Of a DNA stretch of 64,000 nucleotides, positions 4,793 through 56,949 are shown in pieces; the stretch's first letter is position 1, and each line of letters starts with the position of its first letter. The notes below the pieces were generated by a model. It was given only the letters and a program-made list of their open reading frames with translations. It did not search any database and was not told the origin of the DNA. The stretch covers positions 104 to 64,103 of the forward strand of contig JAQUUP010000005.1 in assembly GCA_028693815.1 (NCBI GenBank), in the 5' to 3' direction. The stretch is from Candidatus Omnitrophota bacterium (GTDB lineage Bacteria; Omnitrophota; Gorgyraeia; Zapsychrales; Aceulaceae). The position numbers and the translations under genes are program-made.

Positions 4793-4992
4793 GAGCCGAT
4801 AAAGGTAAACTCGGGGAAACCCGAGGGCACAAAACCACAGACCTAAGTTGTCTGAAGCACTTTGCGCCCTTTGTCCGGAGTGGCAGAAGGGTAATCGAAC
4901 CGATTGGGTAGACGTGGATGGCAAGAGGGTGGCTGGGTTACCGAAGAGTAGTAGAATAGAGGAGAAATCCTAGCTTTTGTCGGCTCTTTTTT
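4793..4992 (+). ncRNA. candidate structured ncRNA or riboswitch-like element of unknown family
   Basis: A long-range closing helix pairs GAGCCGAUAAA (4793) with UUUGUCGGCUC (4976-4986) and ends in a U-tract. Internally there is a GAAA-tetraloop hairpin (CUCGGG-GAAA-CCCGAG), a further hairpin (CAGAC...GUCUG) and G/C-rich segments. No long ORF overlaps it. Confidence 0.45.
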
Positions 4993-5122: not shown

Positions 5123-5273
5123 TGATACGAAATTCAGTAAGCTATATAAGTTTTTATTCTATTTCATTTATTCTCGCCACGGAAAAAAGTGTAACCTGTT
5201 TTTTAAAAATACGGTATAAATTTTTTTCAACTTATGGCCCTTGCGGCAAGCTAATCTAATGAGGAGAAAACCC

Positions 5274-8200
5274 ATGATTGTGTATTTCGAAAAGTCTCAA
5301 AAAAGTCTTGCGTCTAAAATTGTATCTATTTTTATTGCTGTTTGTTTTCTTTTAAGCTCTATCGCGCCTAGCTACGCCCAGAGTCTGTCTGCGCTTCCTG
5401 TGCCAGGGACGATTGTTAGCCCAACACCCGGATTCTTTCCTGTGTTGGTCAGAGCTTTAGAGATCAACCCAGAGAATCCTTTGCAATTTGGCTTTATTGT
5501 AGACAACGGAGACACTGAGTTTCAAGGAGAAGACCTTACCGAAGAAGCCAAGAAGCTGATTCGCTATTTTCTTGCCTGTCTGACAACTCCTGAAGAAGAT
5601 ATGTGGGTCAACCTTTCTCCTTATGAAGAAAACCGTATTGTTTCTGATAATCTCGGCAAAACTCAAATGGGCCGCGACCTTTTAGCTCAAGACTATATTC
5701 TAAAGCAATTGACCGCTTCTCTGATTTATCCAGAGGACGAGCTTGGAAAGAAGTTTTGGGACAAGATCTACAAAACAGTTTATGAGAAGTTCGGTACCAC
5801 AGACATTCCTCTTAATACCTTTAATAAGGTCTGGATTGTCCCAAAGACAGCTAAAGTTTATGAGCATGATAATAGAGTTTTTGTGATTGATAGCAAGCTT
5901 GAAGTTATGATGGAAGAGGATTTCCTCGCGCTATCGCGCTCGCGTGAAATGTTAAAAGTGAAAAGTGAAGCGCACGATTCACGCTTCACGAGCGACGCTT
6001 CACAAAACAAATTGGCCTCAGATATTGTCCGCGAAATCCTTATTCCAGAGATTGAAAAAGAAGTCAATTCTGGCAAAAACTTTGCTAATCTTCGTCAGAT
6101 CTATAATGCTATGATCTTAGCGGCTTGGTACAAGAATAACCTTAAAGAGAGCCTTCTAGGCCAGATCTATGTGGATCAGGGAAAGACCAAGGGTATTGAG
6201 ATTAAAGATACAGATGCCACCCAAAAAATCTACGATCAATACATCGAATCTTTCAAAAAAGGTGTCTACGACTATATAAAGGTAGAGCATGATGCCCAAA
6301 CAGGCAAAAATATCCCAAGAAAATACTTTTCTGGTGGTGCCACGGCTTTTTCTTCAAGCGGCATTCCGTTAAGAGGTATGGTTCAGAATGTTGTGCCAGC
6401 GAGAAGCGATATGGATGCAAATGGTGTCCATGGCCGAAAAGGTGGCGATTTTACAAAAATTGATATTGGGCTTGGTGAGATTGGGGATGTGGAAGGTCAA
6501 TCCAGCTCCGGCATTGGAAAGCCATCAAGAAAAGATATTGCCGAAAGCGTTGAGAAAGGGATAACGTTTGTTCTCGAAGAAATAGATGCCGGAGGAGAAG
6601 TTGATTTATCTGAGACATTGCGTGGAATGGGATTTGCGACATCATCTGATGCGGAGAGCCTGAGATTTTTTTTGGAAAACCGCTGGACGGTTTCTTTGGG
6701 TTCCTGGGAGATGATGGATATTGATCAGACTACTGGTCACATGGTTGTTAATTTAGTAAAGGCTAGTTTTGCCAGCTCGGGTATTCTGACTGTTGATGAT
6801 TTTATGAATGATATCATTTCAATTATTGGATCTGCAATGTCAGATTTAGAAGGAGTGCATCGTATTTATATTTCTCCAAAAGGAAGCGGCTCTGGGTGGA
6901 ATTTCTTATCTGTTGAAGAATTTAAAAAGGTAATGGCAAAAGATTTTTCTGGGGTTGGAAATGTTTTAAGTTTGATGTCTAGCCTTGATGTTGGTTTGCT
7001 ATACGGAAAATCAATTTTTGTTCAATTATCAGAAGGTGAGAATAGATACTTAGCTTCTTATAATGGCAAGAAAATGCCTGGAGATGTAACAATCCAAGAA
7101 GCACTTAACAAAAAAGTTCAAGACCTTAACAATCTTCGCAAGTTGGGAGTTGAAGTGACTCAAACCCCACCCACCGCTGCAGCGATCTCATTGCTAAAAA
7201 CTCCTAGTGATGTTGTAGCATCTGCGGTTGAAGAATATGGCATGTTTCTGCAGAATACTTCAGGAAGATTTGAGGGAGACGATCAAAATACCCCATATCG
7301 TGATACTGATGAAAAAATTCGATGGCCTGAAGGTAAATGGCCTTTGTACATTTTCTTAGGGGATTTAACGGCCAATGGGTTGGGGCTTCGTCTTAATGAC
7401 GAAAAGACAGCTTATGTGGGTGTTCAGTTGGGATCTTATGGAACGTGGACAGATAATTTTCAGGATATTTTCATTCCAGTTGAGATTAAAGTCGTGTCTT
7501 CAGGGCTAAAAACTTATCACGATGTCGTAAGTTATTTAAGTGGGCAAGAAGGGGTAAACTTTGATAATATTTTCGGAAAATTTGGTGACGAGAAGATCCC
7601 TTATAAGGATTGGGGATCTTATAGTTCTCAGTTGCCATCGGAAATCTTTGCGATTGGAAGAGAGGGCTACGTGTTTCAAAAAGGTCCTGATGGGTATGAG
7701 CCAACAGATAGCCCAGGTGATTTCGATGAGCCGGCTGATCCCCTTAAGCAATTGCCAACGGCTACTAGAGCCTCTTCAGACATAAAGACTGATACTAAGC
7801 CTTTTGGAGGTGGAAAAATTTTATTTAGCCGTTTTGATCCTCGAGCAAAGGAAACGGTTCATGAGTTTGGGTTTCCTGGCCATGATCCTGATTGGACGTT
7901 TAAAGAGTCTGGAAACACTGTTTATGACTCTTCTGCTGAGATTATAGATAGAAGAAACGCATTATTAGGAGGAAAAAAATCCAGCTCAAATGTTACCAAT
8001 CGTTTGCAACTCGAGAACGCCATTAGACAATTTATCGTTACAGTTGTCAGAAAAGCATCAATTGATTCAATTAGTCAGATTCATATTGATAAAACACCAG
8101 TAGGAAATGGTGTGGAGCCTGGGGATTTTATATGGATTCAATCTCGTGTCGAGGAAGCTTATGGAGTTTCTGTTGGCGAGGAGTTTTCAATTTTACCAGT

Positions 8201-8900
8201 AAGAAATCTTGTTGATTTTGTTGAGAAAGAAAGCCCGATCCTTATTTCTCAAAGAATCATTGAAGATCCTTCTGTTCAGGTTCGCATGATCGATGCTAAA
8301 AGGCCACTTGATACAGACCAGATTGAAAAATTGGCATTTGGTGGACAGATTACAAGCCTTTATTCTCCTAAAGAGGAAAAGACATTGCATATTTTGGTTC
8401 AAGGAGTTGGAGGGACTCGTGGCGTTGTAAGAGCGTATGTAGAAAACGGGAATACTGTAGACTCTAATGTTACGCTGTATAATCCATCTGAAGACGCAAT
8501 TCTTCTTAGAGGTTTTAGAGTCTTTGAAGAGATTCGTTTTGCTTTAGTGAAAAATGGACTTGGTGATGCGATGATGGGAAAACATTATCCTAATAATCAA
8601 GTTTCGTCAAATACTGGTGGTATTAATCTTGATGCTGGGCTTTTGGATCTTCAAATTGAACGCGATGGAAACGGTATGCCTTTGCCATTTGCGCAACAAC
8701 CGCTTGGAATAATGAATATCCAAGGATTTTCATTTTATATTATGAGTGTCACAAATGTTCCGAGCATGCTTTTGATTTCAGGGTTGGTGCCTAATAATCA
8801 GGATGAGAAAACCGTCTCAGCTGAAAGCACGTTTGAACAAGCGTTGGTTGAAAAGAAGTTCCGATTTGTAGCAGATGACCCACGCAGAATATGTGCTTAA
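5274..8900 (+). CDS. giant secreted protein (1208 aa), paralog 1, with the shared N-terminal module
   Basis: A GAGGAG RBS precedes the ATG at 5274. The product has a signal peptide (MIVYFEKSQKSLASKIVSIFIAVCFLLSSIAPSYAQS). The ORF is uninterrupted. The N-terminal ~370 aa align clearly with the 16017 protein (LPVPG, ENPL, WVNLSPYEENRIV, GRDLLAQDYILKQ, FNKVWIVPK, NKLASDIVREI, NFAxLRQIYNA, PRKYFSGG). Confidence 0.85.
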   Translation: MIVYFEKSQKSLASKIVSIFIAVCFLLSSIAPSYAQSLSALPVPGTIVSPTPGFFPVLVRALEINPENPLQFGFIVDNGDTEFQGEDLTEEAKKLIRYFLACLTTPEEDMWVNLSPYEENRIVSDNLGKTQMGRDLLAQDYILKQLTASLIYPEDELGKKFWDKIYKTVYEKFGTTDIPLNTFNKVWIVPKTAKVYEHDNRVFVIDSKLEVMMEEDFLALSRSREMLKVKSEAHDSRFTSDASQNKLASDIVREILIPEIEKEVNSGKNFANLRQIYNAMILAAWYKNNLKESLLGQIYVDQGKTKGIEIKDTDATQKIYDQYIESFKKGVYDYIKVEHDAQTGKNIPRKYFSGGATAFSSSGIPLRGMVQNVVPARSDMDANGVHGRKGGDFTKIDIGLGEIGDVEGQSSSGIGKPSRKDIAESVEKGITFVLEEIDAGGEVDLSETLRGMGFATSSDAESLRFFLENRWTVSLGSWEMMDIDQTTGHMVVNLVKASFASSGILTVDDFMNDIISIIGSAMSDLEGVHRIYISPKGSGSGWNFLSVEEFKKVMAKDFSGVGNVLSLMSSLDVGLLYGKSIFVQLSEGENRYLASYNGKKMPGDVTIQEALNKKVQDLNNLRKLGVEVTQTPPTAAAISLLKTPSDVVASAVEEYGMFLQNTSGRFEGDDQNTPYRDTDEKIRWPEGKWPLYIFLGDLTANGLGLRLNDEKTAYVGVQLGSYGTWTDNFQDIFIPVEIKVVSSGLKTYHDVVSYLSGQEGVNFDNIFGKFGDEKIPYKDWGSYSSQLPSEIFAIGREGYVFQKGPDGYEPTDSPGDFDEPADPLKQLPTATRASSDIKTDTKPFGGGKILFSRFDPRAKETVHEFGFPGHDPDWTFKESGNTVYDSSAEIIDRRNALLGGKKSSSNVTNRLQLENAIRQFIVTVVRKASIDSISQIHIDKTPVGNGVEPGDFIWIQSRVEEAYGVSVGEEFSILPVRNLVDFVEKESPILISQRIIEDPSVQVRMIDAKRPLDTDQIEKLAFGGQITSLYSPKEEKTLHILVQGVGGTRGVVRAYVENGNTVDSNVTLYNPSEDAILLRGFRVFEEIRFALVKNGLGDAMMGKHYPNNQVSSNTGGINLDAGLLDLQIERDGNGMPLPFAQQPLGIMNIQGFSFYIMSVTNVPSMLLISGLVPNNQDEKTVSAESTFEQALVEKKFRFVADDPRRICA

Positions 8901-8929
8901 CCAAATTCAACCTACGAGGTTGAACGCGG
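8899..8929 (+). repeat. REP-like palindromic repeat, family 1, copy 1
   Basis: AACCAAATTCAACCTACGAGGTTGAACGCGG. It begins at the giant1 stop codon. Confidence 0.85.
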
Positions 8930-9011
8930 CATCATATTAAGCAGGTATTTATTGAATATTTGTTACCCACGAAGAGTTAGTTTTCTAAGCTAACGGGTAG
9001 TAGGTGTAAGA

Positions 9012-9044
9012 GGGGCCCCCGAAAATTCGGGGGCCCTTTTTTTT
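9012..9044 (+). terminator. strong rho-independent terminator
   Basis: GGGGCCCCCG-aaaatt-CGGGGGCCC followed by eight T. It lies downstream of giant1. Confidence 0.85.
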
Positions 9045-9071
9045 GGCTCAACAAGGCAAGTTATGCTAATA

Positions 9072-9104
9072 AACCAAATTCAACCTACGAGGTTGAATGC
9101 GGTT
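9072..9104 (+). repeat. REP-like palindromic repeat, family 1, copy 2
   Basis: AACCAAATTCAACCTACGAGGTTGAATGCGGTT. Confidence 0.85.
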
Positions 9105-9167
9105 ATTCTAAGGTTTTAGCCTAAAAATAAATTTGGCTAGATATCCTTTTATGATATAATGCCATTC

Positions 9168-9485: not shown

Positions 9486-9518
9486 AACCGAATTCAACCT
9501 ACGAGGTTGAACGCGGTT
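9486..9518 (+). repeat. REP-like palindromic repeat, family 1, copy 3
   Basis: AACCGAATTCAACCTACGAGGTTGAACGCGGTT. Confidence 0.85.
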
Positions 9519-9540: not shown

Positions 9541-10215
9541 ATGACAACATTACGTAAAAATCCTTTAGTTAAAGGGAAGATTTATCATATTTTTAATCGA
9601 AGCATTGCTAAGTTTGTTATTTTTAATGATGAAAAGGAATTTGCGCGCATGCTTGAAACAGTAAAATATTATCAGTCAAAAGACTGCGGGGACAGTTTGT
9701 CACATTTTATAAAAATGAAAGAGTCCGAAGCTGTTAATCGTCAGAATAAAATAAAAATTAAGTTGCTTTCTGATAAGCTTGTCGATATTATAGCTTTTTG
9801 TTTAATGCCAACCCATGTCCATTTTGTTTTAAAGCAGCTTAAAGATGGTGGTATTTCAATTTTTATGAGCAATATCCAAAATAGCTATACTCGATTCTTT
9901 AATCTTAGACATCAGCGAAAAGGTCCACTCTGGGAAGGAAGATTTAAGAGTGTTTTAGTTGAAGATGATGAGCAGCTGCTTCATTTAACGCGATATGTTC
10001 ATCTTAATCCGGTTACAGCCGGCTTGGTCGAAAAGCCAAAGGATTGGTTTGCGTCCTCTTATAAGCAATATTTAAAACAAGGCGTGGCAGATTTCTCAAT
10101 GTGCAACTTTTCTGATATTTTGGATATTGATTCGGGCAGCTATCAAGAATTTGTTAATGACCAAATTTCCTATCAAAGGGATTTGGCAGGAATTAAACAT
10201 TTAGTTTTTGATTAG
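9541..10215 (+). CDS. IS200/IS605-type Y1 (HUH) tyrosine transposase, REP-associated (RAYT-like)
   Basis: 224 aa. It has the HxH motif (MPTHVHFV) and the catalytic-Tyr region (LWEGRF...LLHLTRYVHLNPV) typical of TnpA_REP/IS200 transposases. Family-1 REPs flank it. Confidence 0.8.
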   Translation: MTTLRKNPLVKGKIYHIFNRSIAKFVIFNDEKEFARMLETVKYYQSKDCGDSLSHFIKMKESEAVNRQNKIKIKLLSDKLVDIIAFCLMPTHVHFVLKQLKDGGISIFMSNIQNSYTRFFNLRHQRKGPLWEGRFKSVLVEDDEQLLHLTRYVHLNPVTAGLVEKPKDWFASSYKQYLKQGVADFSMCNFSDILDIDSGSYQEFVNDQISYQRDLAGIKHLVFD

Positions 10216-10219
10216 AAAG

Positions 10220-10251
10220 ATCGAATTCAACCTACGAGGTTAAACGCGGTT
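10220..10251 (+). repeat. REP-like palindromic repeat, family 1, copy 4
   Basis: ATCGAATTCAACCTACGAGGTTAAACGCGGTT. Confidence 0.85.
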
Positions 10252-10268: not shown

Positions 10269-10300
10269 ACCGAATTCAACCTACGAGGTTAAATGCGGTT
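10269..10300 (+). repeat. REP-like palindromic repeat, family 1, copy 5
   Basis: ACCGAATTCAACCTACGAGGTTAAATGCGGTT. Confidence 0.85.
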
Positions 10301-12169: not shown

Positions 12170-12262
12170 AGTTTATAGAGTTTATAGGGTTAGTAGCGTT
12201 TATGGTATTAACGCAACAAACCCAACAAACCCAACAAACTAACAAATACAACAAACTTGTTT
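12170..12262. repeat. short tandem repeats (AGTTTATAG x2; AACAAAC-type x5)
   Basis: Direct repeats visible in caacaaacccaacaaacccaacaaactaacaaatacaacaaact. Confidence 0.7.
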
Positions 12263-12266
12263 TATT

Positions 12267-13445
12267 ATGATACAACCTAATAAAAGCGGACATTTTGAGG
12301 AGTTTGGAGGACGCTTTGTTCCTGAGACGTTAATGTCGTTAGTTGTGGATTTAGAAAAGACATTGAATGCTCTTCGAAAAGATAAGAAATTCAAGAAAGA
12401 ATTTGATTTTTATCTTACGAATTATGCAGGCCGGCCAACCAATTTATATTTTGCTTCTCGCTTAAGCGAAAAACTAAAACCATTAAAAGTTTATCTGAAG
12501 CGTGAAGATCTTCTTCATACGGGCGCTCATAAAATAAACAACACTCTTGGGCAGATCTTAGTCGCACGGTCTATGAAAAAAACGCGCATTATTGCCGAGA
12601 CCGGAGCCGGTCAGCATGGAGTGGCTACGGCGACAGCTGCGGCCCTTTTTGGTTTGAAGTGTGATGTGTATATGGGCGCAAAAGATGTTGAGCGTCAGGC
12701 CTTAAACGTTTTTCGAATGAAACTTTTAGGAGCAAATGTTATTCCAGTAACAAGCGGAACGCAAACTCTTAAAGATGCGATGAATGAAGCTATTCGTGAT
12801 TGGGTGACGAATGTTGAAAATACTTTTTATATTATCGGTTCTGTGGCAGGGCCTCATCCGTATCCTACGATGGTGCGTGAATTTCAGAAAATTATTGGTG
12901 TTGAGGCACGTAAGCAATTTTTGGCTAAAGAGAAAAAACTTCCTGATTATTTGCTTGCTTGTGTTGGCGGTGGCTCTAATGCGATGGGACTTTTTTATCC
13001 ATTCTTTGATGATCAAAAAGTGAAGATGATTGGTGTTGAGGCAGCAGGTTTGGGGCTAAATACTGATAAGCATTCTGCTGCTGTTATCAAAGGGGAGATC
13101 GGGGTTTTGCATGGAAGTAAAAGCAAGCTTTTGCAAACGCCTGACGGACAAATTCGAGAAGTTCACTCGATTGCCGCTGGCCTTGATTATCCTGGCGTTG
13201 GCCCTGAGCATGCTTATTATAAGAAAATAGGACGTGCTGAGTATGTTGGTGTTGATGATAAGCAAGCAATTAAGGGATTGAAATTACTTTGTGAAACAGA
13301 GGGTATTATTCCAGCGCTTGAAAGCGCACATGCCATTGGATATTTAGAAAAATTAGCCAAGAAGGTCAAACGTAAGTCAAGTGTGGTTGTTTGTTTGTCT
13401 GGGCGTGGGGATAAGGACGTACACGAGCTCAAGGGAATTATTTGA
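12267..13445 (+). CDS. trpB: tryptophan synthase beta chain
   Basis: 392 aa with the [12 protein letters not shown]-lysine motif and a GGGSNAMG motif. Confidence 0.9.
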
Positions 13446-13447
13446 AG

Positions 13448-13540
13448 AAACCCCACGTCGCTGAGAATCGCCCCTGGGGTAATAGTCAAGAATCAAGACA
13501 ATTGAAACCCCGATGCCCTTCGGGCACGGGGTAAATTCGC
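13448..13540 (+). repeat. double-hairpin dispersed repeat, family 2, copy A
   Basis: CCCCA..TGGGG hairpin, then TAATAGTCAAGAATCAAGACAATTGAAA, then CCCCGATGCCC-ttcg-GGGCACGGGG, then TAAATTCG. This architecture recurs at 30139, 56795 and 43462. Confidence 0.8.
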
Positions 13541-13542
13541 GC

Positions 13543-13590
13543 TAGATGACTTGACGCTCCTTTTAGTCGCGCAAGTCATGCGCTCATTTA
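13543..13590 (+). other. imperfect hairpin (GATGACTTGaCGC...GCGCAAGTCATGC)
   Basis: An 11-bp stem with one bulged base and an 11-nt loop. Confidence 0.5.
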
Positions 13591-13664
13591 AAGATGTTCA
13601 TGAGTTGAGGGAAATAATTTGAGAAAATTAATGTCGCTAAAAGATGTTTCTAGGGATTGTGAAA

Positions 13665-13697
13665 AACCGCGTTTAACCCCGCGGGTTAAACGCGGTT
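13665..13697. repeat. perfect 33-nt palindrome AACCGCGTTTAACC-ccgcg-GGTTAAACGCGGTT
   Basis: It is self-complementary and shares the AACGCGGTT tail with the family-1 REPs. Confidence 0.8.
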
Positions 13698-13728
13698 ACT
13701 AGCGCTTATGTAAAATTGGAGCTCACTT

Positions 13729-14523
13729 ATGAATCGTATTGATCAAAAATTTAAAAGTTTAAGTAAGCAGAAGAAAAAAGCGTTTATTGCTTTTATTACG
13801 GCAGGAGATCCAAACTTAAAAACAACCGAAGAGTTGGTGTTGGCTTTTGAAAAATCTGGAGTTGATATCGTTGAGCTTGGGGTGCCGTTTTCTGATCCTT
13901 TGGCAGATGGGCCAACCATTCAAGAAGCTTCTTATCGGGCGCTTAAAAATAAGGTCAGCATTATAAAAATTCTTGATTCGGTTAAAAGGATTCGAAAAGT
14001 TTCTGAGATTCCAATTTGTTTAATGACGTATTATAATCCTGTATTTCATTTTGGGGATACAAAATTTGTCGCGCAGGCAAAAGCGGCAGGTGTTGATGGT
14101 GTTATTATTCCTGATCTTCCGCCGGAGGAGGCCTCTGAATTGATTCAAGAGGCGCGAAAAAAGGATTTTTCAACAATCTTCTTTTTATCACCAACAACAA
14201 AAAAAGAGCGTATCAGCATTATCGAAAAAGCTTCGAGTGGGTTTATTTATTATGTTTCGATCGCAGGGGTGACTGGCGCACGCAAGGCTTTGCCTAAGAA
14301 TTTAAAAGAAAATTTAAAGAAAATAAAGCGTTCAATCAAAAAGCCACTATGCGTTGGGTTTGGCATTTCTAACGCACAACAAGCAAAAGAAATTTCAAAG
14401 TGCTGTGATGGTGTTATTGTCGGAAGCGCGATCATCAAAGAGATTATAAAGAATAAGGGCAAAAAGAATTTAGTTTCAAATGTTACCCGTTTTGTGAGTA
14501 GCCTTTCTGCAGCTATTAAATAG
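13729..14523 (+). CDS. trpA: tryptophan synthase alpha chain
   Basis: 264 aa with an IVELGVPFSDPLADGPTIQ motif. Confidence 0.9.
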   Translation: MNRIDQKFKSLSKQKKKAFIAFITAGDPNLKTTEELVLAFEKSGVDIVELGVPFSDPLADGPTIQEASYRALKNKVSIIKILDSVKRIRKVSEIPICLMTYYNPVFHFGDTKFVAQAKAAGVDGVIIPDLPPEEASELIQEARKKDFSTIFFLSPTTKKERISIIEKASSGFIYYVSIAGVTGARKALPKNLKENLKKIKRSIKKPLCVGFGISNAQQAKEISKCCDGVIVGSAIIKEIIKNKGKKNLVSNVTRFVSSLSAAIK

Positions 14524-14575
14524 TATTCGATAGCGTAAAAAAATCATTGAACAAATCAATAAAGGATTAATTAAA

Positions 14576-16016: not shown

Positions 16017-19000
16017 ATGGTTCAGAAAATTAAATCAAAAAGACTAAGATCCTTTTTTAGGGGCGCGTCTATTTTCGTGCTTGTGTGCTTTGTGCAGACT
16101 TGCATTGTGCCTTTTGGCATTCCGCAGGCTCATGCGCAAGGGCTTTTGAGTCTTCCTGTGCCTGGCGCTAGTGTGTCTTTGACGCCTGCATTTTCTCCTG
16201 CTACTTTGATTGGTCTAAAAATTCATCCTGAAAATCCATTAAGAGTTGATTTTGTGGTAGATAGCGGAGATTTTGGGCTTTCCAATCAAGCATTTAAGAG
16301 CGAGACCGAAAAATTGATTAAGTATTTCTTGGCAGCACTCACAATTCCAGAAAAAGATCTCTGGGTCAATCTTTCTCCCTATGAGGAAAATCGAATCGTT
16401 GCAGACAATTTTGCTCAGACAGAAATGGGCAGAGACTTGCTTGCCCAGGATTATATCTTAAAGCAGATTACGGCGTCATTGATTTATCCAGACGACGAAC
16501 TTGGAAAAGAGTTTTGGAAACGCATCTATCAAAAGGCTTATGAAGAGTATGGAACAGCGAATATCCCTGTTGATGCGTTTAATAAGGTATGGATTGTGCC
16601 CAAAAAGGCTGTTGTTTATGAAAATGGGGATAGGGTTTTTGTGGCGGAATCGTCTCTATCCGTTATGGTGGAGCAAGACTATTTAGCCATGACAAAGCAT
16701 AGTCAAGGTAGCTCCGACGTTTCAGTCGGAGTCCCGACATCCGACGTTGGTTATAAATCAGGTAAGGAAGTCGGATCGTCGGGAAAGGTGATGCTGGAAA
16801 CGGACTATGTTGCTTTGCAAGCAAAGCAACAAGTATCTAGTGAAGAGCATCTAGTATATGGTGATAATCAGCAACCAAATACCATATCCCAAATACCAAA
16901 TACGGATAATAAATTAGCTTCCGACATTGTCCGCGAAATCATCATTCCTGCCCTTGAAAAGGAAGTCAATCAGGGCAAAAACTTTGCCCAGTTACGTCAA
17001 ATCTATAATGCCGTTATTTTAGCCGCATGGTTTAAAACAAATCTAAAAAATGCTTTGCTCAACGAAGTTTATTCTGATCAATCAAAAGTTTCAGGTGTTG
17101 ACGTTGAAGACAAAAAGATTACGGATAAAATTTATCAAAGATATCTAGAGGCTTTCAAAAAAGGTGTATGTAATTTTGTCAAAGTCGAATACGACGAGAA
17201 TGAGCATAAAAATGTTCCGAGAAAATATTTCTCAGGGGGAACGGACTTGGCTCTTTCTTCTAGCGGAATTTTAGAGAAGACGAATCAATCGTCTTCGGTC
17301 ATTCCAAGCGGGAAGTGTGCTCTTGTTGAGCAGAATTTTAGTGTTTTTTCTTCTACTGTTGTTGAGAAAATTAAGATTAAAGAGGAAGAGCCGTTTTCTG
17401 ATATTTTAAAGGATGTATCTGATAATGAGCTTTTTATTTTAAAAGATATTCTTCGTAATCTTAATGTTCATTTTGCAGAAAGTGAATCAGATTTGATTAA
17501 CGTTGAAAAGTTTTCTTTTAAAAATATTATTCTTAAGCTTAAGAAAATTCTGGATAAACATGGTGATGAAAAGAATAAACTAGATCTCCAAGATCCTAGA
17601 TCTGAAGCATTGATTGGAAGCATTAAGCTTCAGGATGATGGCATTATTTCTATTGTGCACCCGATGTTTACAACTAGTGGTGTTCATGTTGAAAATTATC
17701 CTATTGTTGTTTTTGCACAAAATATAGCCGCTGCAAATTATGAGCAAGTACGGATTCGTCATTGGATCAATTTTTTTAGAGAGCACGATAAGAATTTAGA
17801 TATAGCTATTAAAGATGGAAGATTTGGTACAATAATAAAATTTTGGATTGAAGGCAGCGATGCTCTTGGTTTAAAGAGGCCAAAAGTTGTTGCCAAGCGA
17901 AAAGAAGCATATCGAGCAAAGGTATTAGAATTTAAACAGATAGGGGCCTCTGGCAGAAATGGTTCGGGATCAAAGAATTTTAATGCTTTTCAGAGTAATG
18001 GAAAGCGGGATATCGATTTTGAGTACGATGATGAATTTGTTGTTAACTCTATTTTAGACATTTCTCCACAAGAACTTGGCAAAGTTTCTCGTGAACAATT
18101 GATTCAAAAGCTTGCTTCTTTAATGGCTATGTTAGCGGGAAAAGGTAGTCAGGAGATGGAGCTTTCAACATCAAAGGACAAAGAGCCTTTGTGGCTAGAT
18201 TTTCGAACGGAATCAGCTATTGAGAGGAATTTTTCATCATTTGAACTTTTTCTTGAAGAAGTTTTTGGGCAGGAAGGAGACAAGGAAAAGATTTCTCCTT
18301 ACAAAGCTTACTTTTTTTCAAAAGGACATAGAAAAAATGGTTCTAATGGTAAAAGTTTCTTTACTCCTCGAAAAATTGTTTTAACAATTGATAGAAAGCT
18401 CTTAAAGAATTTTATTATGAAATATAAAGAAAAACATGCTGGAGAAGGTAACGAGTCTGACCGCGTCTATATAGATGAAGATAATTTGAGAAAATATTAT
18501 ATTCTTTCGCTCTGGCTTGATCGAATGATTGAGCTTTTTGAGAAAGAAAGAGTTGTTGAGCGTTATGGTCGTATTGTTGTTGATAAAGAAAAGTTTGTTG
18601 GCGGTCGAGCTTATTCGGAAGACTTTAAATCTTTTGTTGAATTAAAGTCTGAAAAGAATATTTTTATTAATCTGGATGGAACAATTGCTGTTTATGATAG
18701 AGAAAGCGATCAGAAAGGTTATCGTTTTTATGATGATGCCGATAAGCTTTATGATGAGCTTAAAACTTTAAAGGACAATGGATTTAATATTATTCTTTGG
18801 AGTTCAAATTATGAGTGGTTTATTCGTCATAATTTTGTTCGAGAGTCTAGACATAAAAAATGGATAGACCTCTTTAGTTTTATAATCACTCAGGAAAATT
18901 ATCGTGCACCAACAGATGTGGAGCTATCTGAAACTTATTTATCAGAAGAGTTTGCGGATGCTAAAAAACTTTATGGAATTTTTGACTCTTTTAAGGATGT

Positions 19001-22000
19001 CTCTATGTTCGGTCCTTTAAACCGTTTAATCTTAAGGTCAGAACCAATTTATTCGGAGCAGCGAACAGCTATAGAATCAAGGGTTGGTGATAGCACTTGT
19101 GTGATTGGTTATCGTGGAGAGGGAATTGATGGTATGGCCCAAAGAATCTTAAGTGAGGTTTTAACTGAGGCAGAAAAGACTCAGATAGAAAAAGCAAAAA
19201 AAGAGAAATTAGAAAAAATTGAGAAGGAAAAGGCTGAGCGAGAGCGAGTGGAGAAGGCGAGATTAGAGAAAATTGTGAAAGAAAAGGAGCAGCAAGCGAA
19301 GATCGCTGCAGAAAAGAAAGCTCAACGAGATGCAAAAAAGAAAGAAAGAGAAGAAAAAGAGCTAAAAATCAGAGCTTTTTCAAAGGATTATATAAAAGAG
19401 GCAGCAGCTGCAGAAATAATTTTAGAGAACATACTTCATAAGTACCCTCAGATGATGTTTGCGATTAGACTTTTTTCAAATGTTTATGAAAAAGCAGTAG
19501 GATTAGAGGAAAGTGATGACAATAATCAAATTGTAAGCGTGATTTCTGCTTTTTTTGCGATGCAAATAAAACGTCTTGCTTATAGGTCAGGAAAAACTTT
19601 AGATGAATATTTAGAGATCATATCTGGCAATGTCATTGACTCAGAAGGAAAAGTGACGCAACGAGAGGAAGTTGAAGAAATCAAGATTCTTTTGAGAGAT
19701 ATTTTAATTCATGAACTAATTAATGATGAGACGGATGAGTTAATGATTGAAAAGAAAGAAAAGGAATCAATGAGTGGTGACTTGATAATTAAAAAGATGC
19801 TAGACAATGGGATTCCGAAAGCTTTGGGAACTTCAGCGATAAATATTGAAGGATTATTAAGCGCATCTCAGGGAAGCGGTCAGGAAAAGAAAGTATCGCT
19901 GAACAAACAAGCAGCTCAAGCTGTCTCTTCGCTTCTGGATCAAATTTTTGATGATAAGTTTGATTTAGATGGCATAGAAAATCAGGAAAAACTTAAGAAG
20001 GAGATGGACCGCATTGGCTTGTTGATTTTAAGAGATTCGCAGCGAGATATATCTTCTAAAATAAAACATTGGGCGAAAGAGTTTCAAGGGTTTTCACAGG
20101 AAACAATTTTAAGTCGGTGGGCGAAATATAAAGAATCACAATTAAAGAATAAAAAAGATCTTTTGAAGTTTCATGTAACTCTTGCTGATGCGCAAAAAGG
20201 GTATTTGACGATTGAAGTAGTGCTTAAGCTTATCGAGCAGATGCAAGATATTTATAAAAAACTTGATGCAAAAGAAAGAAAAGAATTTTCTTTTCAAGAA
20301 TGGATTGATCTTTGGGATATCAAAATTGATTCTTTTGTTGATAATCTTTTTGATTGTTATCGTTTGGCTGATGGGACTTTTTATTTTTCTAAATTGCCAA
20401 ATTCGCTGCATCCATATTTTGTTAAAACTGGTAATAATTTATATGAATTAAAAGAAGCTTCTCATGGTAATCAGGTTAATTATTTTGACATTTGGTCCAA
20501 GTGGGTTTTTCCGGTTTTTCATAATTTTGAATCTGTTCCTGAAGCAAAAGTCCCTGGCATGCTCAATGCTGATGTGACGTTTTTCATGAATGATCCGAAA
20601 AGATTGGACAGTACTTTTTATACTTATAATGTGTTTCGCATGTTTGAGAAATTTCTAGCGAATATTTCAGTTGATAAGTTTTTTATTTTTAATGTTGATC
20701 ATGGAAAAGAAAAGCTTCCAGCACAAGCAACTGGTATTGTGCGTTATAAGAAAGATGGGACGAGGGATTTGGTGGGTCAGACAAAGGATTTTAAAGATAA
20801 AATAATAAAACTGTTATCAGAGAAGAGATTTTTACAAAACGCGGATTTAAATGGCTTACTGCTTGCTCTTTATGTTCTAGCTGACGAGACGGATGTTGAT
20901 CTTTTGCAATGGTATGGACAATATAAAATTGTCGAAGATCTCTTTGAGGGGGACAGGAGTGGAAATGGCCTTAGTTCTGAGAATAATATCGCACGTGCAC
21001 GTCATTTTGATCGCGGTGTACGCACGTTAGCATTTTATATCTTAGATAAGCTTGCTGGTGGTTTTGAAAAGTTTACAGAAGATTCCTTTGTTGACATAAA
21101 TAAGATTCAGAGCTCGGATGTTGTTATTTTTAAGGAGATAATTCTTCCGTCCGAATATTATAATCAGACAAAGTTCCCTGTTCTTGAGATGGTGGAGGGT
21201 GGATATATAACTTCTGGTGTAGCTGCTCAGATGATACAAATAGAATCTATGTTTTCTCTTGAGCCGCGTGCGTTTAATATTCTTAAGTTAATTCACGGCT
21301 TAGGGCAATCGCTTATTATGGAACCATCTCTTGATCGTAGCGTTTATGTTTTGGGTGATCAAATTCGGGCTGCAAGCAAAGGGTTTCATCCTGCTCATTT
21401 TGCTGAAGATGCACACCGTTACGTGGATTCTGACGGAGTTGTTTTTACACTAGAAGAGGTTGCGCAGAAGAAAAAAACAAAAGAAGAATTCGTAGCAACT
21501 AATACTGATTCAATGGATCTGATCGATTTATCATTAGATGAATATGCTAGGGTTTTTGAGAATTTAACAAGCAAGATTGATTTATCTGTTTTGATTAATT
21601 TGACATTAGAGAAGTATGCTGAGACGCTTACTATGGCTGTAAATTTCTCAGTGCAAAGATATTTGCCTTTGATCAAGAAAGTTATTGAAATACGTAATGA
21701 ATATTTTGAACGATATCAACAATATCCTGCGATTTCTATTGTCAGTAATCGTGATCAAGTTCCAAATGATGCTTTTATTGAGCCAAAAGAAATGAACAAT
21801 AGGGATATCGCAAATAAAATTTTAGGTACAGGACTTCCTGACATTATCCCTCTTAATGGTCAATTGGTCGAAAATTTAGCCGTAGAGCATATTGAGAGCT
21901 TGTTATCTTCTGGGGATGACACACAAGTTTTAAAGCCAGTTGATTCGAATGATAATCGACTTTTTCCTGCGCTGGCCGCAGATCAACTACTCCAAATTTT

Positions 22001-25000
22001 TGGGATCATCAATGCTTCAAGCAAATCAATGGCAATGATTAATCATATTGCTCGTCAGTTTCAGACGAAAGAAGATCTTGAAGATCTTTTGGCTTGTGTT
22101 TTGGGTAATTTTTCTTCCAAGCTTTCTTATCGATCTTCTTTGACCGCTAATTTTATTGTACAAAAAGGTTTTGCCACAAATGAGCAGATGTCAATGGCCT
22201 TTGGGCCGGCCTATCGTTATGACTCCTTTAATCCGTATTATTCTTTAGACAATATTCATTTCTTTGATATTCCAGAATACGGAGTTCCTCAGAATATTAA
22301 TTTTTCATATTATTTTGATTCAAATGAAAAGGCAATTCTTTATCAAATAGCGGAGAATAAGGGTGGGCATGAATTTGTCCGCTATGAATATTCTGGATCT
22401 AAGAGGATTAGTAAAGATTTTGTCCGAGATAGAAAAGAAGATCTTAATTCTGATATTGCAGAGGTTTTAATTGCTTTGGATCGTTTGGCAAATAAAACTC
22501 TTGATTTTGCAGATAAGAAATATGGGGATTTTAAATTAGATGTAGAAAAAGAATTTGGAGCAAAGATTGATGATAGCAATAAATATTTGTTTCTTGAAAA
22601 ATTGCTTGATGCTGTGCTTGATGCTTTGCAAGAAACAGAAATATCTAATGATGGTGAGTTTCTTGACATGCTTTTAAAGGTAGAAAGGGGTGTTGTTTTA
22701 GCAAAAACATTAATTGAGACACGAAATAGTATGGACGAGCTATATCCGTTTGCTTTAGAAAATCGGGTCGAGAATTTTGAATATATTGAGAAGCGTATTG
22801 AAGAATCTAAAGAAGATCAAAAAATAAATATGTATATTGAGCAGAGATTTGCTGGTGCGATTTCAGAGAATTTTCGCGCTTTGATTGAGGGGCTTCTCCA
22901 GTCTAGTCCAAGGATTAAGGTGGATCTTTATATTTTGAGTGATGATCCAAATTATGATTTTGTTCCAAGGAATGGAAATCAAATTGTCGATCCTTATCAA
23001 GGATTTACGACTACGGTTGTTCGCAGTTTAGATGAGCTTGAAGTAATCAAAAAACAAGATTGTCTTCATGTTGGATTGAATTATGATGATTTTGAAAATC
23101 CTCAAGACGAAAATATTTTTGTTGTGGATCTTGCGCATAATGTTCAAGGGGAACTTGATTTTTCACTGAAACGCCAAGAATTATCAACGAGACTCAATCT
23201 TGATCTAGATGATCCTTCTGGATCTATTCCGATCAATCCAGCTTTATTGAAACGAAAAAAGATTCGTAACGAAATTTGGTCTTTAGATGATCTCCTGAGA
23301 CGCAGAGGCGCATTTTTAGATAAAATTTTAACTTCTAAGCAGTTGGAAGTATTGCAATCGAGCGTAGATGCGTTGCCGGACGGCAAAAGCGTTTTTAATG
23401 TTAACATGTCTGTTTTGTCATATATGTCACCAAGTAATCTAGAAAAGTTTCTAGAAGAGATGAGTATCTTAAGATCAGCTATTCTTGATGATGATTTGAA
23501 TGATATTTTTATTAGCGCTGGAGAGGAGCACGGTAAGCAGATTGTTCTTCTTTGGGAGGATTCAGGGTACGTAGCCGAGAGGCTTGATCTTAAGAAGTTA
23601 ACAGATGACATTGGGATTACAGTTATTGACCAAGCTGGAGAGGTTTATCCCGGATTAAAAGAAAAAAGAATTCCTGTAACAATTATTCGCTGTCATGAGT
23701 TGAGTGAAAAACAAAGAAAAGAACTCTTTTCTGAATTGGCTGGAACGGCGAAAATAGTAGAAAAAGATTTGGGTAATGGAAAAGGAAAGAGTAGATTCTT
23801 TGTTGATTTCCCGATTTATATTTCTGGTATGTCTTCGAAATTTTTTAATTTATTATCCACAGGGTCGATGTTTATTCACGATAATTTTGTGATCAAGACT
23901 GGTGAAATGAAATCTTATCTTCAAAATATTCTTAGAAGGGCTTTTGCTTTTGAATCGAAGGATCGGAATAATGGCCCAGCAATTCATAAAGCAGAAATCC
24001 TTGTGCCTGATATGATCATGGGAGGCCAGGCAAAGAATTCTAGGATAGTGATTCAGAAAGGATCTCATAACAACGAAATAAAGACTGCTGCCACATTTGG
24101 GCCAATGTTTGCTTTGGGGAAATATTCTGATCTTGTTGGTAGAACACTGCATTCGCAATCGATTGCTGAAACTTTTTCTAATTTTTCAGCTGTTGAAGAT
24201 TTGCTCTGCGGGATTGCTGGAAGGATTATTGAAGCAGAGGATGTTCCTAATAAATCATCTGTTTTTATTAAATCAAAAGCAGATTCTGATCAATTGGGCA
24301 GTGCAGCACAACCCAAAGAACAGCCTTCGTCTTCAACTAAGAAATTTTTTCCCCCGAAAGAACATTCTCTTTATGCAGGGTTTATGTGGTTGCAACAAAA
24401 TAGTCCGGAATATTTTAATCTTTTTATCAAAAAAGCAAAGAATCCTAATATGGTTATTAAGGATAAAAGTTTTATTGCTGCTGTTACGGATTGCGGGTTG
24501 TGGAACGGCAAGGATGGAGAAGCCGGAGATATTTTGCCAGAAGCAAGGCAATTTGTATTGGACAGCATTAAGGCGTCCGAAGATGAGGCAGGTAACTTTG
24601 ATGAAGGGGCCGATGTATCAAGTAGTGCCATTAGCGATCATTTTAAGGTTGATGATCAAGGACATATAAAATATGTTGATGAAAATTTTAAAGAAAATCC
24701 TACTATCAAACTTGATTTTGAAATGATTGGTTTTCGTCATATGATTACGTTTGCGAATGAACAAGGAATTCTGCAAGGGGGGCCTAGTAACGGTGAAGAT
24801 AATAAGCTAAGTGAAGAAGGAAAAAGGCAGGCCACAGAGGATTTAGCTCCAGCACTTTATGCAATGCTTAAAGAAAAAATTGAGCAAGGAAAGAAAATAG
24901 TGATTGCTCTTAGTGAGGCAGACAGGACGATTGAAAGTATTCAGCCCTTTATTAATTTTGTTAAGGAAACACTCGGCATTGATTTAGAGGTTAAGGTCTA

Positions 25001-29703: not shown

Positions 29704-29848
29704 GTTTGCGGAAGCCAAGCGACGCAAATTTTAGCTGATGTTATCCCGAATTTTTTAATGAGGGATTAAAGAAAATTTATAGTGTTCGTAGAGTTTTTGG
29801 CGCTTGTAGAGTTTTAGCTCTGTAAGCTCAAAGAATTAAAGAAATTGT

Positions 29849-30079
29849 TTAGGCTGCTTTTGTAATTTTTCCAGCTTTGATACACTTTGTGCAGACAGAA
29901 GTTCTTTTGGTAGAGTTCTTTAAAACAATTTTAACGCTTTGCAGATTTGGGCTAAATCGTCTTGGAGATTTTCCGACAATTTTTTGACCTGCACCGCCTT
30001 TTCGGACAGCCATACCACGCCTTTTGTATTTACGTCCAGCGATCGAGGTTTTTCCACATATTTCGCATGATTTTGCCAT
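29849..30079 (-). CDS. rpmB: 50S ribosomal protein L28
   Basis: 76 aa. It has an MAKSCEICGK N-terminus and PNLQ and CTKC motifs. Confidence 0.8.
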   Translation of the reverse strand: MAKSCEICGKTSIAGRKYKRRGMAVRKGGAGQKIVGKSPRRFSPNLQSVKIVLKNSTKRTSVCTKCIKAGKITKAA

Positions 30080-30138
30080 AATTTTTTCCTTAAATGAGGC
30101 CGAAACTTATGGAATTTTTATGATATAAGTTTTTTGGC

Positions 30139-30236
30139 CGAATTTACCTCATGCCCGAAGGGCATTGGGGTTTCAATTATTTTGATTCTTGAACGTTACC
30201 CCATGCCCGAAAGGCATTGGGTTGAAATAGAAGTAT
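30139..30236 (-). repeat. double-hairpin dispersed repeat, family 2, copy B (inverted orientation)
   Basis: The reverse complement reads CCCAATGCC-tttcg-GGCATGGGG, then TAACGTTCAAGAATCAAAATAATTGAAA, then CCCCAATGCCC-ttcg-GGGCATGAGG, then TAAATTCGG. Confidence 0.8.
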
Positions 30237-30368
30237 ACTAAAAAATGGCGTTTTGTCAAGTAGGAAATTGATCGAAAGACACTGCAAAACTAAGGTTTTT
30301 TTATTTTAAGATATCTGTTATAATGCCATTTAGAAATTTCAAATAGAAAATTCAAGATAGAGGAGAAT

Positions 30369-30551
30369 ATGAAAAGAAAAGTTATTTGGATTTTAATTGG
30401 TTTGATTATTATTGGAACGGTTTCAGCGCTTTTGGTTATGCGTTCAATGTGCATGTCAACATGCATTGCAAGCTTTGAAGGAGCTTATCCTGAGATTGCT
30501 TGTAAGTATGAATGCGCTATTCTTGATAAATTTAAGAAACCATCAAGATAA
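30369..30551 (+). CDS. small Cys-rich membrane protein, hypothetical
   Basis: 60 aa with an N-terminal transmembrane segment and five Cys. A GGAG RBS lies upstream. Confidence 0.4.
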   Translation: MKRKVIWILIGLIIIGTVSALLVMRSMCMSTCIASFEGAYPEIACKYECAILDKFKKPSR

Positions 30552-43497: not shown

Positions 43498-43550
43498 ATA
43501 ATTTACGAGCGCTTCGCTCTACAAATTATGTCCTCATTTAGGAGGGAAAG

Positions 43551-44978
43551 ATGAAAAAGATTTTATTAATTTCTGTTATATTTGTTTTTTGTGCGTTTTC
43601 TTTAGCGCAGGCTCAGACTGTAACAAAATCTACTATCGATGATCAAATAGGCGTTGAGGTGACGGTTTATAATTCAAACGTTGGGCTTGTTAAAGATACG
43701 CGTAAAGTTAATCTTTCAACCGGAAAAGAAAACGAACTTCAGTTTATGGATGTGGCGGCTTCTATTATGCCGGTGACGGTTCATGCTAAATCTCTAAACG
43801 CACCGGACAAGTTTATGGTTTTAGAGCAGAATTATGAATACGATTTGATGAATAGCACAAAGCTTTTGGATAAATTTGTTGGTAAGAAAATTAAGCTGAT
43901 GGAAAATAATCAGTATCAGGATCGTAAGAGCATTGTTGAGGCAACACTTTTGAGTAATAACAACGGTCAGATTTATAAAGTCGGCGATGAAATTTATTTG
44001 GGTTATCCTGGCTATCAAGTATTGCCAAAAATTCCAGAAAATCTTATTGCCAAGCCAACTCTAACGTGGATGTATGCTTCTAGCGTGAGGGCTCACGATC
44101 TTCAGGTTTCTTATTTGACAAATCAGATTAATTGGAAAGCAGACTATGTTTTGATTCTCGATAAAGCTGATGTAAAAGCAGATCTCTCGGGCTGGGTAAC
44201 CATCGACAATAAAAGCGGCACTGCTTATAATAATGCTAAGCTCAAGCTTGTTGCTGGTGATGTTAATCGCGTTCAGCAAAATCAGGGGCGTGGAATGCGA
44301 TATAAAAACGAAGCATTAATGATGGATTCTATTATGGAAGCACCGCAATTTCAAGAACAGGCATTTTTTGAATATCATATTTATGATTTGCAGCGGCAAA
44401 CCGATATTAAGGATAATCAAACAAAACAAATTAGTTTGTTGGAAGCCAATGGGTTTAACATTACGAAAGAGTTTTTAGTTTATGGTGAGCAAGGATATTA
44501 CACGCGTCAATATCGAGAAGAGATTCCAAAACAGAAAGCCAAGGTTTTTGTAAAATTTAAGAATGAAGAAAAGAACAATCTTGGGCTTCCGTTGCCCGCT
44601 GGAATAATGCGCCTTTATAAGCAAGACGATAAAGGTTCTTTGCAATTTATTGGTGAAGATCGCATTGATCATATGCCGAAAGATGAAGAAGTTAAAATTA
44701 AAGTTGGAGAGGCATTTGATGTTGTTGTTGAGCGTAAACAGATCGACTACAAACAGATTACGAGAACGCTTTATGAAACAGAATGGGAAATCACCGTTCG
44801 TAATCATAAAAAAGAAGAGATAACCGTTGGGCTTATTGAGCCGCTTTATGGTAACTGGACGATGCTTTCAAGTAGCCATCAATACGAGAAGATAGGAGCC
44901 TTTACGGCACGTTTTGATGTTAGAGTTCCTAAAGACGGCGAAGTTACTGTTAAATATCGGATTCGCGTTGGAATTTAA
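43551..44978 (+). CDS. secreted hypothetical protein (possibly DUF4139/TIGR02231-like)
   Basis: It has a signal peptide (MKKILLISVIFVFCAFSLAQA). The family assignment is from memory and unverified. Confidence 0.5.
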   Translation: MKKILLISVIFVFCAFSLAQAQTVTKSTIDDQIGVEVTVYNSNVGLVKDTRKVNLSTGKENELQFMDVAASIMPVTVHAKSLNAPDKFMVLEQNYEYDLMNSTKLLDKFVGKKIKLMENNQYQDRKSIVEATLLSNNNGQIYKVGDEIYLGYPGYQVLPKIPENLIAKPTLTWMYASSVRAHDLQVSYLTNQINWKADYVLILDKADVKADLSGWVTIDNKSGTAYNNAKLKLVAGDVNRVQQNQGRGMRYKNEALMMDSIMEAPQFQEQAFFEYHIYDLQRQTDIKDNQTKQISLLEANGFNITKEFLVYGEQGYYTRQYREEIPKQKAKVFVKFKNEEKNNLGLPLPAGIMRLYKQDDKGSLQFIGEDRIDHMPKDEEVKIKVGEAFDVVVERKQIDYKQITRTLYETEWEITVRNHKKEEITVGLIEPLYGNWTMLSSSHQYEKIGAFTARFDVRVPKDGEVTVKYRIRVGI

Positions 44979-56890: not shown

Positions 56891-56949
56891 ATGCTTTGTT
56901 TTGCAAGCAAAGTGAAGCAAAAAAGCAGAGGCTCATTTAAGGAGGTATT

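Follow-up and report, generated by a model that had tools for sequence, protein, structure and literature searches.

The subject of this report is the 3' end of trpB, the gene for the beta subunit of tryptophan synthase, in a 64,000-nt stretch of DNA (the window) from a Candidatus Omnitrophota metagenome-assembled genome (MAG). Here the last 33 nt of trpB recur in diverged form in the spacer that separates it from trpA, and a block of hairpin-forming DNA lies between the two copies. The downstream copy is very probably the displaced original end of the gene, now reduced to a noncoding fossil of the last ten codons and the stop. We consider it to be the old end in its native context because it is closer than the working end to every relative compared and because its homology continues past the stop codon; from this it follows that the segment 13413-13589 is the part that has been added.

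The working trpB end and its downstream copy are identical at 24 of 33 positions. The copy begins 144 nt past the trpB stop, and in it both the reading frame and the stop are kept. The nine differences comprise seven synonymous and two nonsynonymous changes, and one, two, and six of them fall at first, second, and third codon positions, respectively. The working type of end reads AAGGACGTACAC...TGA and the fossil type AAAGATGTTCAT...TGA; as read from the sequences, the two share no identical run longer than 6 nt (ATTTGA, at the stop) and have none in common at the left border. When the 283-nt spacer was shuffled 20,000 times with its dinucleotide composition preserved, the best match to the trpB end reached only 22 positions, and no other match above 20/33 exists in the window on either strand. 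Moreover, when 49 gene ends were scanned for an echo within 400 nt downstream, trpB was the sole significant case. A first-pass annotation of this DNA had reported the duplication, and its coordinates, sequences, identity, and preponderance of synonymous differences are all upheld, as is the significance of the match, which it had proposed to judge by shuffling; the distance of 140 nt that it gave was nearly right. The third, weaker echo that it placed at 13639-13661 is also present, although one base further on, at 13640-13662, and it is indeed weak (p ~0.03). The idea that this echo is left over from a trpA start was rejected, its similarity to the trpA starts or spacers of the relatives not being significant.

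That such a resemblance is fortuitous, or an artefact of assembly, is hardly credible. The source is a MAG, and repeats can give chimeric joins in such material; however, none of the 20,000 shuffles attained 24/33, the downstream copy matches the trpB ends of all four relatives examined (p<3e-4 against each), and every relative has trpB next to trpA. In addition, two assemblies agree exactly, since the independent Logan assembly of SRR22315505 matches the window without a difference over 7,179 nt, a span that takes in the whole region. Extension of the contig gained only ~2.6 kb.

The TrpB encoded in the window is 100% identical to an NCBI protein named tryptophan synthase subunit beta from a Candidatus Omnitrophica MAG, and its nearest relatives are those of Ca. 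Aceula lacicola (89%), GCA_964648665.1 (88%), Ca. Aceula meridiana (81%), and a JGI/Logan lineage (80%). The trpB-trpA junction was compared with that of four relatives, designated L002 (Ca. Aceula lacicola), L003, L005, and L006-8. All four have a single trpB end that encodes KDV and a hairpin-free spacer of 0-40 nt before trpA, and the best internal match of each to its own trpB end is 17-19/33. The downstream copy in the window resembles these ends more than the working end does in every comparison: 29 versus 23 of 33 positions for L003, 24 versus 21 for L002, 25 versus 23 for L005, and 25 versus 22 for L006. With L003 the alignment extends ~10 nt beyond the stop, to 45 columns with 4 mismatches and 1 gap. 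The first-pass annotation had suggested that the downstream copy is the displaced original and that orthologous junctions would reveal this; the comparison bears it out, as the hairpin-free relatives carry one KDV-encoding end and no second copy.

The 144 nt that separate the two copies consist of AGAA followed by a module of ~141 nt with three hairpins (table 1). The first-pass annotation had described the intervening DNA as a repeat copy plus a hairpin. Part of it, 72 nt long and 85% identical, is found again at 30139-30210 on the minus strand, in the 5' leader of rpmB. The window holds two copies of the double-hairpin module and not the four previously counted. The only open reading frame (ORF) of at least 30 aa that overlaps the insert, 13442..13534, is read across its first hairpin, linker, and second hairpin; the insert contains no recombinase gene, and its ends are not inverted repeats of each other.

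The rpmB locus could be compared with the corresponding empty sites of Ca. A. lacicola and A. meridiana (L014/L015), where the promoter and a CTATTTC sequence are conserved. In Ca. A. lacicola the leader runs from the promoter through CTATTTC and a native hairpin to CTCATTAC..AAGGAAG ATG. In the window, ~85 nt of double hairpin have been added at roughly the start of transcription, and the third hairpin together with CTCATTTAAGGA occupies the place of the native leader hairpin. The third hairpins of the two modules are built alike, with 4 bp, a 3-nt bulge, and then 8 bp, yet their sequences are not the same: in a hand alignment the 5' arms are ~60% identical. The third hairpin and CTCATTT thus appear to be sequence of the rpmB leader and not part of a transposon. 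Because they appear native to that leader, the trpB insert looks like a copied rpmB-type 5' leader, from approximately its first base to the ribosome-binding site, without the defined ends of a transposon; and because the third hairpins differ in sequence, the copying would seem not to have been recent, or else to have drawn on another such leader. Ahead of the rpmB copy stands the rpmB promoter, and nothing trpB-like flanks this copy; a promoter-like site was also sought in the trpB-trpA spacer, and none was found there. No true further copy of the module came to light in genome, metagenome, and viral collections, which evidently do not include the source MAG; the pattern of its linker gave five chance matches in unrelated genomes and none in metagenome or viral contigs. 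Searched against Rfam 15 with E values as high as 5 allowed, 13380-13760 and 30040-30400 gave no family match, the output being confined to snoRNA and miRNA noise.

Table 1. Positions of the features discussed, numbered from the first nucleotide of the window
Feature	Position	Strand	Remarks
trpB, tryptophan synthase beta subunit, 392 aa	12267..13445	+	NCBIfam TIGR00263, 615 bits
Working trpB 3' end, upstream copy of the duplicated 33 nt	13413..13445	+	AAGGACGTACACGAGCTCAAGGGAATTATTTGA
Inserted three-hairpin module	13449..13589	+	absent from all four relatives; paralogue of the rpmB-leader copy
Module, first hairpin (H1)	13449-13480		
Module, linker (25 nt)	13481-13505		
Module, second hairpin (H2)	13506-13532		
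Module, AAATTCG	13533-13539		
Module, third hairpin (H3)	13539-13583		
Module, TCATTT tail	13584-13589		
Downstream copy (echo) of the trpB end	13590-13622	+	AAAGATGTTCATGAGTTGAGGGAAATAATTTGA; encodes KDVHELREII*
Very probable fossil of the ancestral trpB end (13590-13622) with ~10 nt of native downstream sequence	13590..13632	+	29/33 to L003
Third echo, AAAGATGTTTCTAGGGATTGTGA	13640..13662	+	weak: gapped score 11, p ~0.03, mainly via shared AAAGATGTT
REP-like perfect hairpin, D2 family	13665..13697	+	-23.7 kcal/mol, z = -5.3; absent from relatives
Native trpA leader, ACTAGCG...AATTGGAGCTCACTT	13698..13728	+	orthologous to the L002 trpB-trpA spacer
trpA	13729..14523	+	NCBIfam TIGR00262, 291 bits
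Second module copy, 5' leader of rpmB (L28)	30092..30223	-	directly upstream of rpmB
Second copy, first hairpin (H1)	30223-30198	-	
Second copy, second hairpin (H2)	30172-30146	-	
Second copy, third hairpin (H3)	30139-30098	-	
Second copy, CTCATTT	30098-30092	-	
rpmB promoter (TTGACA, 16 nt, TATACT)	30259-30232	-	
RAYT-like Y1 transposase gene	9541..10215	+	Pfam PF01797, 36.9 (cut-off 23); relatives without the gene
D2 REP hairpins flanking the RAYT-like gene	9487-9517, 10220-10250, 10269-10299		
REP hairpin 8900-8930, then fossil 8967-8993 (PRRVSFLS*)	8900..8993	+	independent second case, strong
trpA-end fossil upstream of the M16 peptidase start	14542..14575	+	p = 3e-4 and 0.015, weaker
Probable recJ 3' end fossil adjoining the rpmB stop	29825..29851	+	p = 0.018 against L014, weaker

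Two sequence features of the module may be recorded here. The CTCATTT motif, in most cases with a hairpin ahead of it and with AAGGA(GG) or AGGAGG and then a start codon directly behind it, occurs at 30098-30080 (-), 43533-43553 (+), and 56932-56952 (+), ahead of rpmB and of the genes that start at 43551 and 56950, and CTCAYTT also stands between the GGAG and the ATG of trpA; it may be a context typical of translation initiation in this lineage. Within trpB itself, the sequence GGGCGTGGGG at 13401-13410 resembles the 3' arm of the module hairpins, the relatives having GGTCGTGGAG or GGACGAGGTG at this place, and it is predicted to pair with 13451-13459, the 5' arm of the poorly formed first hairpin, so that the working trpB end would be looped out.

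The explanation that we favour, and to which we would give an even chance, is an insertion accompanied by a local duplication, both of which arose in place by a template-switching or annealing route that kept trpB intact. Some 141 nt of hairpin DNA, copied from an rpmB-type 5' leader and comprising two hairpins that resemble repetitive extragenic palindromes (REPs), the third leader hairpin, and CTCATTT, would have entered trpB 33 nt ahead of its stop. The 33-37 nt from the entry point to just past the stop would have been duplicated, either as part of this event or a little earlier. Of the two duplicates, the upstream one would then have remained on the body of the gene as its working end, and the downstream one on the old spacer, where it would no longer be translated as part of TrpB. 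The route was presumably either replication-associated template switching or the annealing of an ectopic single strand at short homologies, for which the candidates are TATTT on the left (TTATTTGA versus CTATTTCA) and AARGA on the right (AAAGA versus AAGGA). Re-annealing 33 nt upstream of the point of departure would generate the duplication, and selection would retain only those products that left trpB intact.

Several observations are consistent with such a history. The layout is one of copy, insert, and copy, and the insert is accounted for by the module in common with the rpmB leader; this geometry fits an insertion with duplication, and the two presumably arose together. Both copies stop at TGA, and all four relatives at TAA; both encode VHEL, which occurs in 0 of 119 other listed TrpB homologues. 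These shared characters point to a shared history of the working end and the fossil. Furthermore, the six neighbouring genes examined all rank the relatives in the same order and give no sign of transfer. The arrangement has a counterpart in templated insertion at microhomologies, with which it shares the presence of an rpmB-type leader at a new, ectopic site, a junction similarity of 4-5 nt, and a duplication that could be a by-product (10.1101/2023.11.22.568220). It differs in that 177 nt were added, the mechanism here being read from the junction sequences, whereas the reported patches of short-patch double illegitimate recombination are very rare and range from 3 to ~100 bp.

Other observations weigh against the origin of both copies in place. 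The two copies differ from each other in the manner of orthologues and not of a gene and its recently dead copy: they disagree at 6 of the 10 third codon positions, and at 3 of the 20 first and second ones. When the sites are polarised by the majority of the four relatives, the working end is derived at 6/6 and the fossil at 0/6 (three sites being tied), and the fossil has neither an indel nor a unique change. In the working end, 6 of 8 codons (AAG..GGA) end in G or C, a level reached by 1% of 8-codon windows in the genes of the window. Divergence in place at a clock-like rate would be expected to give the reverse asymmetry, and the derived, G/C-ending character of the working end hints at a replacement end that was coding sequence elsewhere before it came in with the module. 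Moreover, the first and third hairpins of the module are far diverged from those of the resident rpmB copy, the junction microhomologies amount to only 4-5 nt, and we know of no transposition mechanism that yields 33-nt target duplications. A self-comparison for direct repeats flanking each REP was significant only at trpB, the other seven p-values giving ~0.26 in a hand combination. The asymmetry itself, in hand tests on 33 nt, has p ~0.02-0.05, and AT-biased mutation together with shared codon preference could partly explain, by parallel change, why the fossil resembles the AT-rich relatives.

Three possible sources of the unusual working end were considered and set aside. A local template, as in quasi-palindrome correction, is not indicated, only chance-level 7-mers being present nearby; a general shift to G/C-ending codons in gene ends beside insertions is contradicted by the fact that trpB alone shows it; and a long foreign tract in trpB is not in evidence, the synonymous identity to L003 in the last 38 codons being normal (0.62). 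A distinct feature of trpB is that between codons ~270 and 392 (13075-13445) its synonymous third-position identity to Ca. A. lacicola falls from 0.6-0.74 to 0.29-0.38, other pairs being at ~0.5; this drop suggests that one or the other genome has a mosaic past.

The pattern of divergence gives some weight, although we think it unlikely on the whole, to an import. The working end, or the last 10-14 codons of the gene, would have come together with the module from a diverged related lineage that had the module between its trpB and trpA; the left join would have been made by short homology within trpB and the right by illegitimate recombination at AARGA, and the end of the recipient would have been left behind as the fossil, an event of the homology-facilitated or short-patch illegitimate class. 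A derived working end that differs mostly at synonymous sites, its G/C-rich third positions (a trend absent at the other junctions), an unblemished fossil, and a module whose first and third hairpins are very unlike the resident ones would all be accounted for in this way, and for Acinetobacter it is documented that ectopic single strands integrate at microhomologies (10.1101/2023.11.22.568220). But no donor was found: an end with VHEL or ..HELKGII occurs in none of the 119 other listed homologues, and a degenerate search for the working trpB end in JGI metagenomes produced no match. No long foreign tract accompanies the end, TGA and VHEL are common to both copies, and an event of this kind should be rare, yet several nearby junctions show similar relics.

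These other junctions are therefore worth describing. Most of the gene borders between 8.9 and 15 kb, as well as that between recJ and rpmB, are wider than in the relatives. The clearest case is the gene at 5241-8900, which now ends in ...PRRICA* and takes the last A of its TAA stop from a REP hairpin that begins at 8900; 36 nt beyond this REP lies CCACGAAGAGTTAGTTTTCTAAGCTAA, which encodes PRRVSFLS* and is identical at 21 of 27 positions to the end of the L002 gene (PRRVSALS*, p<3e-4). The two ends are equally long, and the fossil has the orthologous terminator behind it. Between trpA and the M16 peptidase gene, an 8-nt overlap in three of four relatives (L002, L003, and L005) has become a 52-nt spacer; the score of the trpA-end fossil found there derives in part from the M16 start itself, and neither a REP nor a three-hairpin module lies between this fossil and the working end. 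The convergent recJ and rpmB genes, which overlap by 4 nt in the relatives, are 145 nt apart, and there too a probable old end remains, again at a junction free of REPs and of the module. An echo after the REP at p104/M20 was not significant, and a trpA fossil in the L006 lineage, first seen by eye, was rejected (p = 0.41). In this genome, then, the expansion of junctions has repeatedly left displaced gene ends behind.

A similar fate has befallen a promoter. That of the 104-aa gene is doubled around the REP at 9073-9103: an old -35 element with its spacer, cut within the -10, is found at 9042-9072, and a complete TTGGCT-17-TATAAT at 9132-9162, both of which match the single promoter of L002 (p = 0.003 and 0.008). 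This is the regulatory counterpart of the gene-end relics. As a separate observation, the widened DUF3108/trpB (12170-12266) and recJ/rpmB (29780-29830) junctions carry repeats of a short TAGAGTTT(A/T) motif, with CAACAAAC(C) units at 12215-12255; the DUF3108/trpB junction measures 0-16 nt in the relatives, except for 72 nt in L006.

The separation of overlapping or abutting genes through duplication of their junction is a known phenomenon. Here the trpA/M16 (in three of the four relatives), p101/M20, and recJ/rpmB pairs overlap by 4-8 nt in the relatives and are apart in the window, and at two of the three, trpA/M16 and recJ/rpmB, an old gene end lies beside the downstream gene. A literature search found no paper on such separation of overlaps as a bacterial process.

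These junctions also bear upon the order of events at trpB. A short tandem duplication of the trpB end might have come first, and the module, and later a REP, might have landed in the disposable DNA that it created. The duplicated end at trpA/M16, which has no REP or three-hairpin module between its copies, would be such a duplication by itself; at 8900-8993 a gap of 36 nt separates the REP from the fossil; and two REPs, those at 10220 and 10269, make up a tandem unit of 49 nt. At trpB, however, the module together with AGAA takes up all of the space that separates the copies, a precision unexpected of a later insertion, and the asymmetry of the substitutions is as troublesome for two successive steps as for the single event that we favour. 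We consider this sequence of events rather improbable.

The REPs belong to a family, designated D2, of which there are six copies in the window (8900, 9073, 9487, 10220, 10269, and ~13665), and these hairpins are absent from the relatives. Three of them flank a gene related to those for REP-associated tyrosine transposases (RAYTs), whose best NCBIfam match, REP_Tyr_transpos, scores 68.4, below the cut-off of 80. In being short, GC-rich, imperfect palindromes with several intergenic copies, mostly downstream of ORFs, and in the association of hairpins with a Y1-transposase gene, the family resembles the REPs and bacterial interspersed mosaic elements (BIMEs) of RAYT systems. The usual terminal GTAG/CGTC tag is not evident by eye on the D2 hairpins, CGTAGG being present in the loop of the complementary strand in five copies but not in that at ~13665; and the trpB module differs from a REP in being a three-hairpin unit, seen twice in the window, whose right part is rpmB-leader sequence. 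To our knowledge, REPs have not been reported to leave behind a gene end that is duplicated and displaced. It is known that they can adjoin ORF ends or run into them and provide stop codons (PMC3733652); the text of that paper contains no match for "duplicat", so such displaced ends are not discussed in it.

The first-pass annotation had likened the trpB arrangement to site-specific integration into a gene end by a small element that brings its own copy of that end, as tRNA-targeting islands do. Such an element would be a miniature of prophages such as e14 in icd of Escherichia coli. The likeness to e14 or phage 21 in icd and to tRNA-associated islands is genuine as far as geometry goes: a gene body, a substitute end, an insert, and a displaced original end follow one another, the differences between the ends being largely synonymous. 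In the case of e14, icd extends into the prophage, and an icdC fragment is found at its far end (PMC13626634). Elements of the e14 type, however, are kilobases long, encode an integrase, and share a common core at both junctions, whereas the 141-nt insert here has no recombinase gene and its junctions no identical core. No transposase-like gene lies closer to it than the RAYT-like one 3.2 kb upstream, and that gene is linked to another family of hairpins. The annotation further proposed to test whether other copies of the module are followed by echoes of the 3' end of the gene upstream; the only other copy, in the 5' leader of rpmB, has no trpB-like flank, so that there is no consistent cargo, and the right part of the module is itself rpmB-leader sequence. 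Furthermore, a displaced end is also found behind a REP of an unrelated family, and the occurrence of such ends behind other inserts argues for a general process and against a module that brought the trpB end with it. Hence, although the mostly synonymous divergence that this model predicts is observed, an element with its own trpB end is not supported, and we judge it very unlikely.

A looser version, which we regard as improbable, is that small noncoding hairpin cassettes of this lineage may travel with a short substitute end of the neighbouring gene, enter the homologous gene of a different genome in frame, and displace the resident end. One side of such a cassette would be joined by homology and the other illegitimately, and the process would be a recombinase-free counterpart of e14 on a micro scale. 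Two further classes of element were tried and rejected. Miniature inverted-repeat transposable elements and insertion sequences with target duplication require terminal inverted repeats and an identical repeat of 2-15 bp; there are no inverted repeats here, and the duplication is 33-37 nt long and 73% identical. For a diversity-generating retroelement, whose reverse transcriptase was not searched for, only 3 of the 9 differences fall at adenines of the downstream copy (by hand count), and a 33-nt repeat is far below the length of the known template repeats.

It is also most unlikely that the downstream copy has been kept by selection, either as a short translated ORF (from the ATG at 13578, MRSFKDVHELREII*) or as a translation signal for trpA. 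An ATG does stand in frame with the fossil to give an ORF of 14 codons, the fossil comes after CTCATTT, the motif that stands before the ribosome-binding site in rpmB and in the genes starting at 43551 and 56950, and its closeness to L003 is unusual, with 9 of 10 third positions identical. But no convincing ribosome-binding site was seen by eye before this ATG, the ORF is in none of the relatives, trpA has a GGAG site of its own 106 nt further on, and no Rfam family matches the region.

We return to the preferred reading, insertion with local duplication. Taken as such, the displaced trpB end is a fairly ordinary trace of a compact bacterial genome that absorbs insertions at the borders of its genes: such a genome takes up selfish hairpin repeats without the loss of ORFs, and the events that survive are duplications of gene borders. 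The left-over ends preserve an earlier state of the sequence and could be used to order insertions and to estimate neutral rates in uncultured lineages, and they can also be miscalled as small ORFs. Events at a border can give a protein a new C-terminus, as in the gene at 5241-8900, which has ICA* in place of VSFLS*. Were the working trpB end imported after all, it would be a natural case of short-patch illegitimate recombination between lineages, and if cassettes do carry substitute ends, this would be a route by which repeats cross lineages without breaking genes.

Some minor features of the window remain to be noted. GC skew is strongly positive over its whole length, and the plus strand carries 47 of the 50 tabulated genes (49 by a crude ORF filter, plus rpmB); from this skew and the co-orientation of the genes we conclude that the window lies on one replichore. 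A c-di-GMP-I riboswitch (Rfam RF01051, 65 bits) is located at 4794-4945 (+), ~300 nt upstream of the 1219-aa gene at 5241-8900. The 5' part of that gene and that of the 3212-aa gene at 16017-25655 share DNA that is 71-76% identical (5548-5847 with 16306-16605, and 6006-6146 with 16908-17048), and the two proteins therefore have paralogous N-terminal regions.

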